This document shows, piece after piece, positions 47,954 through 54,087 of a DNA stretch of 64,000 nucleotides. The stretch comes from Candidatus Thorarchaeota archaeon (lineage in GTDB: Archaea; Asgardarchaeota; Thorarchaeia; Thorarchaeales; Thorarchaeaceae). The DNA lies in NCBI GenBank assembly GCA_029858305.1, contig JAOUFI010000007.1, positions 763 through 64,762 of the forward strand, written 5' to 3'. The position numbers were made by a program, and so were the translations under genes. Each line of letters starts with the position of its first letter. The stretch's first letter is position 1. The notes beneath the pieces were generated by a model. The model was not told where the DNA came from. It did no database searches and saw only the letters and a program-made list of their open reading frames with translations.

Positions 47954-48967
47954 TCAAGTATCATTAAAGTCAATAATATACAGCGTATTTCCTACAGCCT
48001 GCACGATCTCGCGTTTCTTATCGCCATCGATATCGCCAACAGCAAGATTCGATTCTGTTGACTTCTTGGAGGTCTTCAGTGTTGCCTCCTCAGTGATTCT
48101 TTTGCCAACTAGAGTCAATAATGTAATATTGGAGTTGGCATGACTGACCACTATTTGACCGCGTGCAGGTTCTAAATTCCAAAAACGCCCCATTCGTACC
48201 ACATTAACTGGATTGGGTGCTTTTATGGAATCAATCCTTTCCATTGTCCCCTTAACTATTCCATACAAAGTAAGTGTCTTCCCATCAGAAACGGTCATTG
48301 CTTCATAAGTTTCATCATCTGTAATGTCCCCTGTAGAAACAAGCCCCACATCTCCTCCAACGCTGATTCTCGCTCGTTCATGCAATCTATCATCACCATA
48401 TTGATAGATGTAGAAGTATCCTGAATCATCTCCGAAGATAAAACGACTATAGGGCATTCCCTTGGTATAGAGCGGTTGGATTGAGAACACTGGTCGTTCG
48501 AGAACTTTATGGGCTAGCTTATCCAAAGCAACATCATACCACCCATAACATCGCATGCTACCATCACTGGTCGCCACAACGACTTCAGCACTCTCATCAT
48601 CTAGAACATTGAGAACTGAAACTGAGGTAGGAAGACTACCTAAAGGAGTTGAAGCCTTTACGCTAAGACAGTCATCCAAAAACACAACTACACGTAGTGT
48701 GTTATCAAGTCCACCGATGACAAAGTCCTTTACCCCATCACCAGTCACATCTCCAATTCCCATTGCAGCTAAAGGTGGTAGATTCCCTAGTTTGCACCGT
48801 TCTGTAAGAGGATTCTTATCCTCTTGGTGGAATTCATAGACTCTTACATCTCCATTGAGTGTTGATACGACAATATTACTCCTCCCCTTATTTCTTAAAT
48901 CCACAATTTCGACAGATGTGATCACCTCCTTGAAGGTAACCTTTGAAATAACTTCAAGCAAGGTCAT
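47954..48967 (-). CDS. Cytoplasmic beta-propeller with FG-GAP/VCBS-like DxDGD loops
   Basis: Repeats GDVTGDGVKDFVIG, NVLDDESAEVVVA, GDITDDETYE, GDIDGDKKREIV; no signal peptide or TM segment visible. Confidence 0.75.
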   Translation of the reverse strand: MTLLEVISKVTFKEVITSVEIVDLRNKGRSNIVVSTLNGDVRVYEFHQEDKNPLTERCKLGNLPPLAAMGIGDVTGDGVKDFVIGGLDNTLRVVVFLDDCLSVKASTPLGSLPTSVSVLNVLDDESAEVVVATSDGSMRCYGWYDVALDKLAHKVLERPVFSIQPLYTKGMPYSRFIFGDDSGYFYIYQYGDDRLHERARISVGGDVGLVSTGDITDDETYEAMTVSDGKTLTLYGIVKGTMERIDSIKAPNPVNVVRMGRFWNLEPARGQIVVSHANSNITLLTLVGKRITEEATLKTSKKSTESNLAVGDIDGDKKREIVQAVGNTLYIIDFNDT

Positions 48968-49095
48968 GTGGGGAGTCCTCTTACAGCTGATGGCTGAACG
49001 AAAACGTGAAGGACTTTGAGACCATTTAAGAGTTATTGGATTGAGGAGATGCCAAAACTAATGAGCTTAAGAGTGAAGCATGAGACCTTGATACT

Positions 49096-49641
49096 ATGGG
49101 CAGAGAAAAAGAGCCACTCAATCTTGATGAAACCGAGTGGACTTCCACATCGGAAACTGTTGCAAAGGACCTTCAATCTTTTGTAGATGAGTTCGGCTCA
49201 TTCACACCGCAGCATTTCGCTGAAGTTAATTTCCATCTTCTTCGAGGTACGAGTTTGACTAAAACAAGTCGCGATGAGCTTTGTGAAATATCAATTCACA
49301 TTAAGACCTGTCCCAAATGCGATTTCTTGTATGTTGCAAAGAAATGTCTACTCTGGTCACGGCTCTATAAAATGGTGACTTGGGAAATCATAGAGAGAAC
49401 ACCCCCATGTATTCGATTAGCCTTTGCGAAGAGAACAATTAAGACTGTCACAAACTATCTTGTAGCAGTCAATGTACTGGCTCCTCCTTTCTTTAAATCA
49501 CGAAGGGCTCCATCCTGTATTGCTATGCGTCACTGGGGTTATTGCCATCCGAACGAATATTGCAAAGCAATGAAGACAGGCAACACCTTCGAGTATATAG
49601 CAGCTCGAGAACGAGTGAAACTTTCGCGAACACACCCTTGA
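49096..49641 (+). CDS. Small Cys-rich protein resembling the Fe-S C-terminal domain of primase PriL
   Basis: PPC-x35-(PS)C-x8-C-x5-C...N.FEY pattern; also an HxxxCxxC motif. Confidence 0.6.
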   Translation: MGREKEPLNLDETEWTSTSETVAKDLQSFVDEFGSFTPQHFAEVNFHLLRGTSLTKTSRDELCEISIHIKTCPKCDFLYVAKKCLLWSRLYKMVTWEIIERTPPCIRLAFAKRTIKTVTNYLVAVNVLAPPFFKSRRAPSCIAMRHWGYCHPNEYCKAMKTGNTFEYIAARERVKLSRTHP

Positions 49642-49701
49642 AAGTATTCCTTGTTATGGCTTAAATAGCAGGTCTGATATCAAAACTCGGAGTTATCTAC
49701 T

Positions 49702-51210
49702 TTGCAGAATAATGTAGATGTGGATGCCATTCGCCTAATCCGCCTCACTGGACTTAAAGAGAGTGAAATTGCCGATGCAAGAAACCAAGGTGGTGAGAGC
49801 TGGAGTAAAATTGCCCGGTCAATCAAAGAACACGAACAGCTCATCTCAATGGGTGAAAAGCATACAAGGCAAAAAGCCATTCAGGATCCCGTTCATGGAG
49901 CTATTCTATTTGATCCATGGGAGCTAGACATCATCTCATCCTGGGAAATGCTTCGGCTTCGATATGTGATGCAGCTTGGACCTGCACATATTGTTTATCC
50001 TGGGGCTACACACACTCGGTTCCAACACTGCCTAGGCACTAATTTTCTTGCCCAGAAGTCAATCCGTGTGGTGAATTACTGTGAAGATCTTGATTGTGGT
50101 CACTTTACTCCTTTCTCTAACCTGCTTGATGATTATCAGAGGAAATTGTTTAGAGCATCAGCCTTGCTTCACGATGTTGGCCATCCACCCACTTCTCACA
50201 CCATCGAGTTCGCCCTACAGTCTTGGGCTGGCATCAATCACGTAGATCTGGGAGAGTATTTAGTCCTAAATAGTGGACTCACTGACATCCTCCAAAAGAA
50301 CGATATAGAACCACAGGATATAATGAGTATTCTGAGAGGAAAAACCAACAATCCTGTATTGAGGATTCTCCATGACTTTCTAGATCATCCCTTAGATATC
50401 GATAAAACAGACTATTTGATTCGGGATGCACATTATAGTGGTGTACAGCTAGGAGTATTTCCTGCTGAACGAGTTATGCTAACCAACCGCGTAGTTATGG
50501 ACAGAGAAGGAAAATACGTTCGTGCTTTCATGTTGAAAGCAATACACTCTCTTGAGTCTCTGATTCTTAGTCGCAATTGGATGTTCTCTGACCTGTATCT
50601 TCACCATGCAGTAAAACTTGCAGAGGCTCTTGTGTCAAAAGCAACATACTTCAGAATGGAAGAAGAATCTCTTACAAAGAATGAGTGTATCGGTCTCTTT
50701 ACCAGAATGAATGATAGCGACCTCTTCCGCTGGCTCTCCGAATCGGAGGTTGCTTTCGTTAGGGAATATGTATCACGAATCCGATATAGACGGCTGTTCA
50801 AGGTGGCTCTTCTTAGACCTCTTGTGGCATTTGAACCAAGTGCTAGAAAGAAGCTTCTCCTGATGCTCGATGAAATCACTAATCTGATTGAAACAGAGAA
50901 TGAGCTCTCAGAGGAACCTGGCAGCGTAGTAGTCGACGTTGTAGTTCCAGAATTAGGAGAAAAGACCTTGAGTAAGATACCACTCCTGATTGGTGGTGAA
51001 CGAGGTTTCGACCTTGTAGGTCTGGATGAAACAAAGGAGGGCTTTCCTCTTCTGCAGATTCTGAAGCAGCAATCACGAACAATCCCATCAGTTCGTGTAT
51101 ACTCAGAACCTAAGATTGCTAACGCTGTCAGGAAGAAGTTTGAAGAACTATTTCCACCAGCAGATATTCCTACATATCGGGAAGATGAATATGATTTTCT
51201 AGAGTATTAG
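49702..51210 (+). CDS. SAMHD1/YwfO-like HD-domain (d)NTP triphosphohydrolase
   Basis: QDPVHG, RLRYVMQLG, YPGATHTRFQHCLG, LHDVGH, DIDKTDYLIRD. Confidence 0.88.
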   Translation: MQNNVDVDAIRLIRLTGLKESEIADARNQGGESWSKIARSIKEHEQLISMGEKHTRQKAIQDPVHGAILFDPWELDIISSWEMLRLRYVMQLGPAHIVYPGATHTRFQHCLGTNFLAQKSIRVVNYCEDLDCGHFTPFSNLLDDYQRKLFRASALLHDVGHPPTSHTIEFALQSWAGINHVDLGEYLVLNSGLTDILQKNDIEPQDIMSILRGKTNNPVLRILHDFLDHPLDIDKTDYLIRDAHYSGVQLGVFPAERVMLTNRVVMDREGKYVRAFMLKAIHSLESLILSRNWMFSDLYLHHAVKLAEALVSKATYFRMEEESLTKNECIGLFTRMNDSDLFRWLSESEVAFVREYVSRIRYRRLFKVALLRPLVAFEPSARKKLLLMLDEITNLIETENELSEEPGSVVVDVVVPELGEKTLSKIPLLIGGERGFDLVGLDETKEGFPLLQILKQQSRTIPSVRVYSEPKIANAVRKKFEELFPPADIPTYREDEYDFLEY

Positions 51211-51884
51211 AGTAGATGCTTGATGTTTTCAATGACTTTCCTGAAACCATGTTCCATCTGAATGATTCCAAAGATAGCCTCAACAAGTGTTCCCTTATCA
51301 TGCTCTATCTCAGCTTTGCCTGGAACATCAGGATCAAAGTGAATTCTATGTTCGTAGAGTCCCCATCGATCGCACAGGTTTGCCATGTGCATGTTACTAA
51401 CAATCTCTGATTTTTCTTGTGTGATGTGCCCGACATCACTTGGATCTGGTTGCCATAACTGGTACAATACGCCCATATCAATTACAGAGTCCCCAAGCAG
51501 AGCTATCACCTGAGCTATCTCACTTAACGCTATTAGGTCTGCGAACTCGTGATCCTCTAATGGATTGTTCCTCTCATTCTTATAATGCGTGTCTAGCTCT
51601 AGGAATAGGTTCTTTGTACTTGGCTGGAACATTACTACCTGTACGATTTCGATATTTTTGATTCTTATATCTAGAATTTTCTCTAACTTTGGAATCAACT
51701 GACGACGAATATACTCCAAGCGTATCTGTACTTCTTTAAGTTGCTCTCTCCATCGGTCGATTTTTGCATGGAGCCGTGTCTTGTTCGCTTGGGTTTCCTT
51801 TCCTGTCTGATCTATAGCTTTCAATAAGACCTCGAGCTTTTTTTCTATGTGAATAGGTTTCAAGGAGAGTTTCATCCGACTCAA
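51207..51884 (-). CDS. RNase III-domain protein without dsRBD, N-terminal coiled coil
   Basis: LLGDSV, VSN..MA.L...GL, GTLVEAIFG match the RNase III signature blocks. Confidence 0.72.
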   Translation of the reverse strand: MSRMKLSLKPIHIEKKLEVLLKAIDQTGKETQANKTRLHAKIDRWREQLKEVQIRLEYIRRQLIPKLEKILDIRIKNIEIVQVVMFQPSTKNLFLELDTHYKNERNNPLEDHEFADLIALSEIAQVIALLGDSVIDMGVLYQLWQPDPSDVGHITQEKSEIVSNMHMANLCDRWGLYEHRIHFDPDVPGKAEIEHDKGTLVEAIFGIIQMEHGFRKVIENIKHLL

Positions 51885-51897
51885 GATTTCATCCTCC

Positions 51898-52671
51898 TCA
51901 GTAATAGCTTATCTCGGCATTTGTCCTATCATATCTCGTTACACGGAAAGCAGTGATTGAGTACTCAATTGCAAGCTTTGCCATTGCTAGGGTGACCAAT
52001 GACGGCCCGAGAGTCAAATCGATTACCATATCGTGAATAAAGATGTTATCAATTATTCCTGCCTCCATGAAATCAACAGTGCCTTGTAAGTTTCCATATT
52101 CTGTTTCATCATCAGTTCCCGTAACCTCGTCTGGGACTTCAATCCATTCTGTTGTCCAACGTCGGAAAGCATCATCAGGTATGAATCGATCAACTATCCT
52201 TGATACACCTCGAGTCCAGTGTCTTGCCTCCACGAAAACAAGCAATTTCTTTGGATTGAAGTAGGGATTGTTTGTTAACCACTGTACAAACGGTCGTTGA
52301 TCCTCAGGTCGGCTAAGAGACGTAACATACAAAAGCGGTTTTGAGATTCCTAACGCTCTCCGAACAGGATGAATAGCTCTTGGCTCAAGTTCAAAAAGGC
52401 GGTATTGAGATTGTTTCCAGCTGACGATAATCCCCAAGTCTTCGAGGCGTCCAGTGTTATGATAAAGCTTGGGACTAGTCACCTCAACCTTCTCAATCTC
52501 CCTCTTACTCGCACCCTCCACCATCATCTGTGCCTTGATGTCCGTAGCAATCTTCTCTCTAAGTTCTGCGCCAGTCTTCAGTCCTCCCTCAAGTTGATCA
52601 AGAATAATCCGTCTTGCCCTCACTGTTTCAATCTCTTCTTTGATCATATCTTCAAGGGATTTTCGGAGCAT
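51898..52671 (-). CDS. wHTH + CARF-like Rossmann domain regulator
   Basis: N-terminal wHTH (KLYHNTGRLEDLGII..W); C-terminal strands LYVTSLS, KKLLVF, EWIEVP, MVIDLTLG...LAM..LA, TAFRV follow CARF order. Confidence 0.62.
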   Translation of the reverse strand: MLRKSLEDMIKEEIETVRARRIILDQLEGGLKTGAELREKIATDIKAQMMVEGASKREIEKVEVTSPKLYHNTGRLEDLGIIVSWKQSQYRLFELEPRAIHPVRRALGISKPLLYVTSLSRPEDQRPFVQWLTNNPYFNPKKLLVFVEARHWTRGVSRIVDRFIPDDAFRRWTTEWIEVPDEVTGTDDETEYGNLQGTVDFMEAGIIDNIFIHDMVIDLTLGPSLVTLAMAKLAIEYSITAFRVTRYDRTNAEISYY

Positions 52672-52947
52672 TTTATCACACTATCCGCGGATATATTATC
52701 TAGTAATCTCATGTATTAACCTTTTATACTTATCGAAGATAATGTCCTCTCCTGCCTGAAAAACGCTCAGAAAAGCCTCTACAATATACATTGTTAAGAT
52801 ACTTTTCGAAAAGAAAGAGGGGCCGTCCGACGAACCCTTAAATAGAATTTGCAGAAACGGTGTAGTAGCAAGGAGCTTCTCTAGCTCTGAACTGGCGAAT
52901 CTGAATTTCTGGATTTGTCTAAAATTAAAATACACGAGGACCGAAAA

Positions 52948-54087
52948 ATGGCTGAAGACGAGTTTCTTGGCGCAAAGCCGATTGTCATTGACAACGGCAC
53001 TGGATTGAGCAAGAACGGATACGCCGGCGAAGATCAGCCACGAAGTGTCTGGCCGACTCTGATTGGTTATCCAAGATATGAGTCAATCATGACCGATGTT
53101 GATCACTACACACGTGACTACTACATCGGTGAAGAGGCTATCAACCTACGTGGTGTCCTACGTCTGGTTTACCCGATCTCTCATGGAATTGTAGAAGACT
53201 GGGATGCCATCGAGAAGATTTGGAGCTACACGTTCTATAACGACTTGAAGGTAGACCCAAGCGAGAACCCGGTGCTCCTCACTGAGGCACCATTCAACCC
53301 CAGAGAGAACAGAGAGCGTATGGCCTCCGTCATGTTTGATAACTTCGGAGTACCCGCAGTATATGTTGCCACACAGGCAGTGCTATCACTGTACGCATCT
53401 GGTAGAACAACTGGTCTAGTCATCGACTCTGGTGACGGTGTGACCCACATAGTACCAATCTATGAGGGCTTCTCAATCAATCATGCCATCCGCAGAATCG
53501 ATTTAGCTGGAAGAGACATCACCGAGTATCTGCGCAGACTACTCAGACAGAGGGGTTACTCCTTTGTCAGTGGTGCAGAGAAAGAGATTGTCAGAGATGT
53601 CAAAGAGAAGCTATGTTACGTAGCTCTCGATCCCGAGAGGGAACGAACTGTTGCTGACAAGGCTGGTGTCGACAAACCCTACATGCTTCCTGATGGTGAA
53701 GTAATCACTGTTGGTGCAGAGAGGTTCCAAGCTCCTGAGTTGTTCTTCAACCCAAGTGCTATTGGTCTTGACACAATGCCACTCGATGAACACATTGTCG
53801 AGTCAATCAAGGCTTGTGATGTCGACTTGCGACGTGACCTGTACGCCAATGTTGTGCTATCCGGCGGTTCAACTATGTTCCCTGGACTCAAGGAGAGACT
53901 CCACAAGGAGATCACCGAACTAGTACCCGAGAACATCGAGGTTCGTATCATTGCTCCACCAGAGAGACAGTACTCTGTCTGGATTGGTGGTTCTATCCTC
54001 GGCTCACTGAAGACCTTCCAGAAGATGTGGGTCTCAAAGAAAGAGTTCGAAGAAGTCGGACCCGAAGTCATACACCGCTGTATCTAG
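52948..54087 (+). CDS. Asgard (Lokiactin-type) actin
   Basis: [73 protein letters not shown]; ATG 52948 behind GAGG. Confidence 0.97.

Follow-up and report, generated by a model that had tools for sequence, protein, structure and literature searches.

What the iron-sulfur (Fe-S) cluster in the C-terminal domain (CTD) of the primase large subunit PriL contributes to primer initiation and hand-off is debated. In human p58C, according to the summary in PMC5700102, R306 and its neighbours are essential for initiation and recognise the 5'-triphosphate, and in Saccharolobus solfataricus a reduced PriL-CTD is dispensable for priming and anchors PriX (PMC5700102). The PriCT domains of mobile-element primases are related to the Fe-S_N subdomain of PriL (PMC5862659). 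Here we describe a protein of 181 amino acids (aa) encoded in a 64,000-nucleotide stretch of contig JAOUFI010000007.1 from a Candidatus Thorarchaeota archaeon (hereafter the window). A first-pass annotation, made from the sequence of the window, had read the C-terminal half of this protein as a PriL Fe-S domain in miniature, standing alone, and this core claim is upheld by conserved cysteines, a profile match to PriL and the presence of a separate priL. The protein very probably consists of two modules, a truncated PriL-CTD paralogue with four cluster ligands and a second module with four cysteines, and exists beside a full PriL in the same genome.

Kinship of the C-terminal module with PriL

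The gene and the features of its C-terminal module (C-module) are as follows.

49096..49641 (+): whole gene, stop codon included, for a two-module cysteine-rich protein of 181 aa, from the listing of open reading frames (ORFs) and homologous clusters
49372..49638 (+): C-module, residues 93-181, a predicted truncated PriL-CTD-like Fe-S domain with a net charge of +10, from hhalign, shuffles, a reciprocal hidden Markov model (HMM) and charge
49402..49410 (+): P103-P104-C105, the 'PPC' that would provide the first cluster ligand at a helix start, aligned to FPPC of PriL, with P103 and C105 invariant
49516..49563 (+): C141-x8-C150-x5-C156, putative cluster ligands 2-4 (SC..MR.WGYC.PNEYC), with PriL-like spacing
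49594..49608 (+): Y167...R171 in the terminal helix, equivalent to (H/N)PL.(Y/F)Y..R of PriL, invariant in 31 sequences and aligned to NPLxFY..R

PriL C-terminal domains for comparison were cut from Asgard loci, and those of the short type were used in hhalign. Against these short-type PriL-CTDs, residues 93-181 aligned at E 4.9e-8 (probability 94.8%, score 50.5, 73 columns), with the PPC helix, all four cluster cysteines and the terminal Y/R helix paired with PriL. The aligned non-cysteine positions comprise PPCI, a TxYL/TSFL helix, M(R/K)..G(Y/L)C and PL.Y..R. Across 150 column shuffles that kept the cysteine columns, the score reached a maximum of 24.9 (mean 11.5); with the alignment reversed, it was 14.1. 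In the reciprocal direction, a PriL-CTD HMM run over 19,794 six-frame ORFs of the genome ranked the true PriL first (5.7e-45) and the 181-aa ORF second (E 0.016), so that the PriL profile match expected under the first-pass annotation was obtained both ways.

The similarity extends to canonical PriL proteins of other archaea. Over positions 138-176, the family profile gave partial matches to three Freyarchaeum ORFs of 344-350 aa (E 8e-5 to 1e-3 per genome; 301 genomes). All three are located between PCNA and PriS and carry CNTLRTYGLCEKNELC..HPLSYYR with the C-x8-C-x5-C spacing of the 181-aa family, and the one that was scanned with Pfam is a PF04104 PriL. This spacing and a near-identical motif are found in canonical PriL of both Freyarchaeum and Thermoplasmatota (CDTIRTWGLCYPDEYC). 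Moreover, scanning the family peptide pattern [WY]G[YL]CxP[ND][EDI][YF]C in one genome per species (185,579 species) matched 54 stretches, 46 of them confirmed relatives, namely 43 Thorarchaeota family loci and three canonical PriLs from Thermoplasmatota or unclassified archaea (CDTIRTWGLCYPDEYCRGIKHPLFYY). In a PDB profile search with the C-module, PriL 9f26_B came second (E 0.085), with the PPC and C-terminal motifs both aligned. The best match in that search was a 450-aa 'virion nicking-joining enzyme', 30ie_B (E 0.018), reached via RCKLLKNMKQCTNDIYC, in which the cysteines have the C-x8-C-x5-C spacing of archaeal PriL; a literature search on 30ie_B found no paper.

BLASTP of the 181-aa protein against the genome's own PriL was not significant, and the full-length family profile against Thorarchaeal PriL alone gave E 0.092, yet with the four cysteines aligned in order; significance was reached only by the C-module against short-type PriL-CTDs and not by the whole-length profile. 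At the level of sequence comparison, we regard the homology of the C-module to the PriL-CTD as established. The module has a median net charge of +10 and a pI of 9.9, and this charge fits nucleic-acid binding. The first-pass annotation had also proposed a redox sensor that binds primers or ssDNA, as opposed to a primase subunit; nucleic-acid binding would agree with the charge, and redox sensing is a conjecture.

The eight cysteines of the protein form two groups of four. The spacing that had been reported for the C-terminal group is correct (PPC105, 35 residues, C141, x8, C150, x5, C156), and its conservation is complete: C105, C141, C150 and C156, together with C63, C72 and C75, make seven cysteines that never vary among the 31 sequences aligned, and C84 is present in every sequence at a distance after C75 that varies from x3 to x8 in distant members. 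Further conserved columns are F36, P38, P103, A109, Y167 and R171.

Compared with PriL, the C-module is markedly reduced. The distance between the first and second cysteines is 35 residues, versus ~77 in PriL-CTDs; ~40 residues are deleted, and the H..R(F) motif (L.H..RF loop) and the YQ(V/I)EH(I) motif fall in gaps of the hhalign alignment. The loss of this H..R/YQxEH region argues against a PriL-like role in binding the initiating nucleotide. By the subdomain scheme of Kazlauskas et al. (PMC5862659), what is kept is the small Fe-S_C subdomain and, of Fe-S_N, only the first two helices. The protein also has no PriS-binding N-terminal domain, as the first-pass annotation stated: residues 1-92 against the N-terminal domain or mid region of PriL gave hhalign E 0.08-0.28. 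A separate, full-length priL does exist elsewhere in the genome, on contig C152, and its canonical product has 380 aa. This true PriL scores 70 bits on Pfam PF04104, and canonical PriL was found in 61 of the 61 Asgard genomes searched. Given a canonical PriL beside it, the 181-aa protein is no replacement for the primase subunit; it has the ligand pattern of PriL, and lacks the PF04104 match, the N-terminal domain, the nucleotide-binding motifs and the gene linkage.

We also observed two types among the Asgard PriL-CTDs (L028-L057), a short one with C-x8-C-x4-6-C..HPL.YY and a long, eukaryote-like one with ~50 extra residues before the fourth cysteine, a split that agrees with the published division between the Loki group and the Heimdall group. 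In Thorarchaeal PriL the spacing is x11, which is unusual, and the C-terminal tail is long.

Distribution of the family and its N-terminal module

A search of 5.8 billion proteins returned homologues in 132 clusters, nearly all of 175-200 aa, with 49-89% identity to the 181-aa protein among the 120 matches listed. The named clusters are all labelled 'hypothetical protein', and the closest relatives are all labelled Candidatus Thorarchaeota. A HMMER scan of 1.8 billion representatives added a handful of further distant relatives at 27-34% identity, and a distant-relative search from an alignment of the outliers yielded four proteins only. Across the 301 Asgard genomes scanned, the gene is present in single copy in 72 of the 75 genomes of its own GTDB family and occurs in three other Asgard families, two of them named Jordarchaeales and Candidatus Freyarchaeum at NCBI, and is missing from most of the remaining ones. 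No relative was found in a scan of viral contigs, and neither the single sequence nor the profile of the whole family had a meaningful match among PDB sequences. The retention of the eight conserved cysteines, Y167 and R171 across 21-89% identity, along with the single copy and a promoter-like box, indicates that the gene is functional. The family is an undescribed, strongly conserved family of Asgard archaea; in the recent papers on Asgard primases and replication that were checked, no cluster-keeping protein of this kind, devoid of the nucleotide site and equipped with a second cysteine module, is described.

The N-terminal module (N-module) spans ~90 residues (1-92) and has two parts.

49123..49275 (+): 'head', residues 10-60, helices with W15, F36, P38, F41 and H47, from conserved columns, a helicase match and helices predicted by AlphaFold2 (AF2)
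49282..49347 (+): cysteine knuckle C63-x8-C72-x2-C75-x8-C84, a putative second metal or redox site, from conserved cysteines

Across the family, the knuckle has the pattern C-x8-C-x2-C-x3-8-C. The first-pass annotation had recognised in HIKTCPKC a Zn-type HxxxCxxC motif, and only part of this claim stands: the peptide is present here (H68, C72, C75), but its histidine is not conserved, the H68 column reading H/F/Y/K/S/N/Q/D/L/P/C. With this column variable, the family has no conserved ZAS-like HxxxCxxC, nor does it match zf-HC2 of Pfam, and it thus does not carry the zinc motif of ZAS-type anti-sigma factors. The AF2 models are all-helical and of moderate confidence, with a predicted local distance difference test (pLDDT) score of 79.7 for the full-length model and 82.8 for that of the C-module; helices in the N-module are predicted at 19-33, 38-44 and 56-68.

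The N-module is also found apart from the C-module. In another Asgard family it occurs in stand-alone ORFs of 105-110 aa with five cysteines, and a homologue of its first ~50 residues (W..E..EFG.F.PE.F.E..FH.LR) makes up the N-terminal ~60 residues of a 606-aa superfamily 3 (SF3) helicase of the D5_N/DUF5906/Pox_D5 type, a match at E 2.9e-7 with a profile built without that helicase. Together, these two occurrences imply that the N-module is autonomous. The helicase, which has no primase domain, is encoded at L021:1758-3578 (+) (= G055:C27, within L104) in another Thorarchaeon, in an integrated element that also carries a tyrosine integrase, a C5 methylase and DUF488. PHROG 'DNA primase' profiles cover it only from ~position 211 onward, implying that the head occupies the place of the primase domain in phage relatives. 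The stand-alone ORFs (L022:1497-1814 (-) and L023:1158-1490 (+)) both adjoin a gene for a polytopic membrane protein of 255-262 aa, which by its sequence appears to resemble the prepilin-peptidase type.

Several possible origins of the N-module were considered. An internal duplication relating it to the C-module was rejected (E 0.48), neither descent from the PriL mid region nor circular permutation of the CTD found support (E 0.08-0.11), and comparison with the PDB gave noise only. In two genomes, small proteins of the AhpD-like/CMD kind were weakly matched by an HMM of the module (E 0.0022 and 7.9e-4). The CxxC was aligned in the hhalign comparison with CMD, which scored 30.4 where shuffles reached at most 20.6. 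There was no reciprocal HMMER match, no Pfam CMD match and no AhpD fold by Foldseek, and kinship of the N-module with AhpD/CMD is tentative. The same genome encodes a 114-aa CMD/AhpD-like protein (G000:C16:494-835, L105) with C-x8-C-x2-C (CIVASILSPCEEC), the spacing of C63-C72-C75.

Gene neighbourhood

In Thorarchaeota, the order of genes is a 139-aa protein, an FG-GAP/BBS-like propeller (-), the 181-aa gene, a 502-aa HD/HD_assoc_2 protein, an RNase III-like protein (-) and a 257-aa CARF protein (-), with the 181-aa gene between the beta-propeller gene and the HD gene. Nearly all loci retain it, including those in which identity of the 181-aa protein has fallen to 45%. Two promoter-like elements flank the gene.

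49065..49072 (+): TATA-like box GCTTAAGA, 24 nt 5' of the ATG, likely the gene's own promoter, judging from a conserved motif
49659..49667 (+): TATA-like box GCTTAAATA in the 60-nt spacer, ~35 nt 5' of the HD gene start, conserved as (G/C)CTTA(A/T)ATA

The motif (A/G)TG.GCTTAAG(A/T) occurs at the same upstream distance in nearly all Thorarchaeota loci inspected, and the GCTTAAGA box would fit an archaeal promoter with a short leader. The downstream motif is likewise kept in nearly all Thorarchaeota spacers inspected, which argues that the HD gene is probably under its own promoter. Outside Thorarchaeota, none of these neighbours is present at the loci of Jordarchaeales, Freyarchaeum, a further Asgard family (f8) and the 236-248-aa relatives. 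Given this missing adjacency and the TATA-like box in the spacer, an operon joining the gene to the HD gene throughout the family was rejected.

The HD + HD_assoc_2 protein (502 aa, 49702-51210 (+)) is SAMHD1/dGTPase-like, with a weak PADLOC dGTPase match; its listed TTG start is possibly not the true start. The 3' end of its gene is overlapped by 4 nt by that of the gene for an RNase III-domain protein (225 aa, 51207-51884 (-)), which is on the same strand as the CARF gene. Directly upstream of the RNase III gene is that for the 257-aa protein (51898-52671 (-)), which has no Pfam match and matches CARF_m5 of PADLOC at E 1e-20. The two could constitute a CARF-sensor/RNase III pair conserved across Thorarchaeota. 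The block is bracketed by two eukaryote-like signature proteins, the FG-GAP/BBS2-BBS7-like beta-propeller (47954-48967 (-)) and an Asgard actin (52915-54087 (+); Pfam Actin, E 5e-133).

The most distant full-length relatives (L002 and L003, from metagenome contigs) are 236-248 aa in length, with long N- and C-terminal extensions. Both are encoded 1-1.5 kb from an RPA-like protein with two oligonucleotide-binding (OB) folds, and at L002 a Toprim protein similar to Topo VI-A and a fragment of a Hel308-type helicase are also encoded close by. At some distant loci the gene has an RPA-like OB protein, Hel308 or a large DEAD helicase in its vicinity, an association too inconsistent to be counted as evidence.

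Proposed role and comparison with known systems

Based on the data presented above, we give a probability of roughly 0.5 to the reading that the 181-aa protein is a small two-module metalloprotein acting as an accessory nucleic-acid-binding factor, and no second primase large subunit. Under this reading, the C-module would bind a [4Fe-4S] cluster bridging its two halves, its basic surface would bind DNA or an RNA-DNA junction, and it would be unable to hold the initiating nucleotide in the manner of PriL. The N-module may carry another metal centre (Zn or Fe-S), or else a dithiol that is redox-active, and its head might dock the protein on a partner in the replication/repair machinery. The mobile-element helicase without a primase domain could then exploit the same partner via the shared head, plausibly reaching the host priming/replication machinery. 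That the accessory role lies in replication is a tentative proposal. In its fullest form the proposal is doubtful: it would make the protein an unrecognised Fe-S replisome or primase accessory of Thorarchaeia, Jordarchaeales and Freyarchaeum with two metal centres, in which a miniature PriL-CTD sits on DNA or the primer-template, the head docks on the priming machinery, and an element helicase has copied the head to hijack priming.

A number of results weigh against this interpretation. The 181-aa protein has no match in Pfam (even at E<=1), NCBIfam, PHROG or PADLOC. Foldseek searches of the PDB with the AF2 models of the whole protein and of the C-module found no PriL/p58C chain and no significant match, and a search of BFVD with the whole model found no match. 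This failure to recover the PriL fold, with query models that hold no cluster and a C-module of only 89 aa, is the main evidence against the PriL-CTD reading. Additionally, the nucleotide-binding residues of PriL are absent from the C-module, which leaves a replication role by association only; the gene never adjoins priS or priL, and its neighbours vary between lineages; and the fusion of the head to a helicase is one case only.

Among other explanations, the protein might be a true third primase subunit, similar to PriX, that joins PriS-PriL for primer initiation, counting or hand-off. The homology to the PriL-CTD, the precedent of PriX in Sulfolobales, where a reduced PriL-CTD anchors it (PMC5700102), and the head found in place of a primase domain in the D5-type helicase would all agree with such a subunit. 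However, the regions of the essential PriL arginine (human R306) and of YQxEH fall in deletions, there is no linkage to priS or priL, and the family is missing from most Asgard lineages, whose priming relies on the same PriSL type. We consider this explanation unlikely.

It is also improbable that the protein is a redox or iron sensor regulating the adjacent SAMHD1-like HD triphosphohydrolase, or the whole HD/RNase III/CARF block, such that its Fe-S or thiol state would tune dNTP hydrolysis or a nucleotide-sensing system. The gene is 60 nt upstream of the 502-aa HD gene with its weak dGTPase match and co-oriented with it, an order retained in nearly all Thorarchaeota loci, to 45% identity; however, the whole six-gene block is syntenic in Thorarchaeota, so the adjacency is possibly mere inherited order, and the TATA-like box in the spacer suggests that the HD gene has its own promoter. 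Moreover, the gene has no HD gene next to it in Jordarchaeales, Freyarchaeum, family f8 or the 236-248-aa relatives, and two Thorarchaeota loci (L009 and L059) have the 181-aa gene and lack the HD gene. The tentative likeness of the N-module to CxxC redox proteins of the AhpD/CMD type would suit a sensor, but it is not reciprocal in HMMER and not seen by Foldseek.

Convergence, by which an unrelated small Zn or Fe-S protein, for instance a WhiB-like or ZAS-like regulator, matches the spacing of PriL by chance, is quite improbable. It would account for the missing p58C/PriL fold match, the missing PF04104 match, the E of 0.092 between the full-length profile and Thorarchaeal PriL, and the top rank in the PDB profile search of an unrelated 'virion nicking-joining enzyme' with the same C-x8-C-x5-C (E 0.018). 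On the other hand, the 73-column match takes in non-cysteine positions, its score is far above those of the cysteine-keeping shuffles and it is reciprocal, while the histidine of the ZAS motif is variable and neither WhiB nor zf-HC2 of Pfam is matched. Finally, decay of a duplicate priL into a pseudogene, or its recent truncation, would explain why only the C-terminal part of PriL is present, but is hardly credible for a protein that keeps a length of ~181 aa in >130 clusters and has residues that do not vary among four Asgard families, with a gene that is fixed in its genomic position and preceded by a promoter-like box.

The family represents a natural minimal PriL-CTD, consisting of the predicted cluster-binding core and the terminal helix and encoded by a separate gene in several Asgard lineages beside an intact PriL. 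It offers a protein small enough to be handled easily in studies of the cluster-binding core in isolation, and it adds an uncharacterised conserved component to the information-processing genes of the archaea closest to eukaryotes. The head in common with a mobile-element helicase points to a docking surface and could reveal the partner. Should the function prove unrelated to replication, the PriL Fe-S core would have been reused as a general module.

Among known systems, AhpD-like/CMD proteins (PF02627) bear a tentative resemblance to the N-module in the order of helices and the place of the CxxC, and Thorarchaeal CMD proteins even have C-x8-C-x2-C. In contrast to CMD, the N-module has Tyr (Y79) for the His of CxxCxxxH and two extra conserved cysteines, and the C-terminal half of CMD is absent. 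The PriCT-1, PriCT-2 and helix-bundle domains of mobile-element archaeo-eukaryotic primases (AEPs; PMC5862659) belong to the PriL-CTD superfamily and lie just upstream of D5_N/SF3 helicase modules, the very position of the N-module head in the one Thorarchaeal integrated element. Unlike PriCT, however, the 181-aa family has no Pfam PriCT match and has largely deleted Fe-S_N, and what the helicase carries is the head of the N-module and not the PriL-like module.

The comparison with the PriL-CTD/p58C itself (C-terminal part of PF04104; PDB 9f26_B, 3Q36 and 5F0Q) is the closest for the C-module, which shares with it the order and context of the four cysteines, the helix that comes next, the PL.Y..R helix at the end and an all-helical prediction. 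The family differs from PriL in having no PriS-binding domain, a shorter distance between the first two cysteines, deleted motifs, an extra N-module with four cysteines and a location that is not beside priS. The reduced PriL-CTD of S. solfataricus (residues ~212-307; 5OF3_B) is similarly small, and its motif SCAKMKQLGLCVSSC..KNPLQLY is close to SCIAMRHWGYCHPNEYC..NTFEY of the family; unlike the 181-aa protein, it is within a full PriL chain and has no second cysteine module. PriX of S. solfataricus (PDB 4WYH and 5OF3; PMC5700102) is, like the 181-aa protein, a small, stand-alone, helical PriL-CTD paralogue, and both are encoded apart from priL with a complete PriL present. As described, however, PriX is a cluster-free six-helix bundle that has the larger Fe-S_N part and an NTP-binding site (D70/R72/R74) and binds PriS/PriL, and this description sets it apart from the 181-aa family, in which the cluster ligands and the smaller Fe-S_C part are kept and the nucleotide-binding region is lost. 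With the cysteine ligands kept and the Fe-S_N part lost, orthology with PriX is unlikely. Stand-alone relatives of the PriL-CTD were thus already known in the form of PriX; what appears to be new is a version that keeps the cluster ligands, dispenses with the nucleotide site and carries a second cysteine module.

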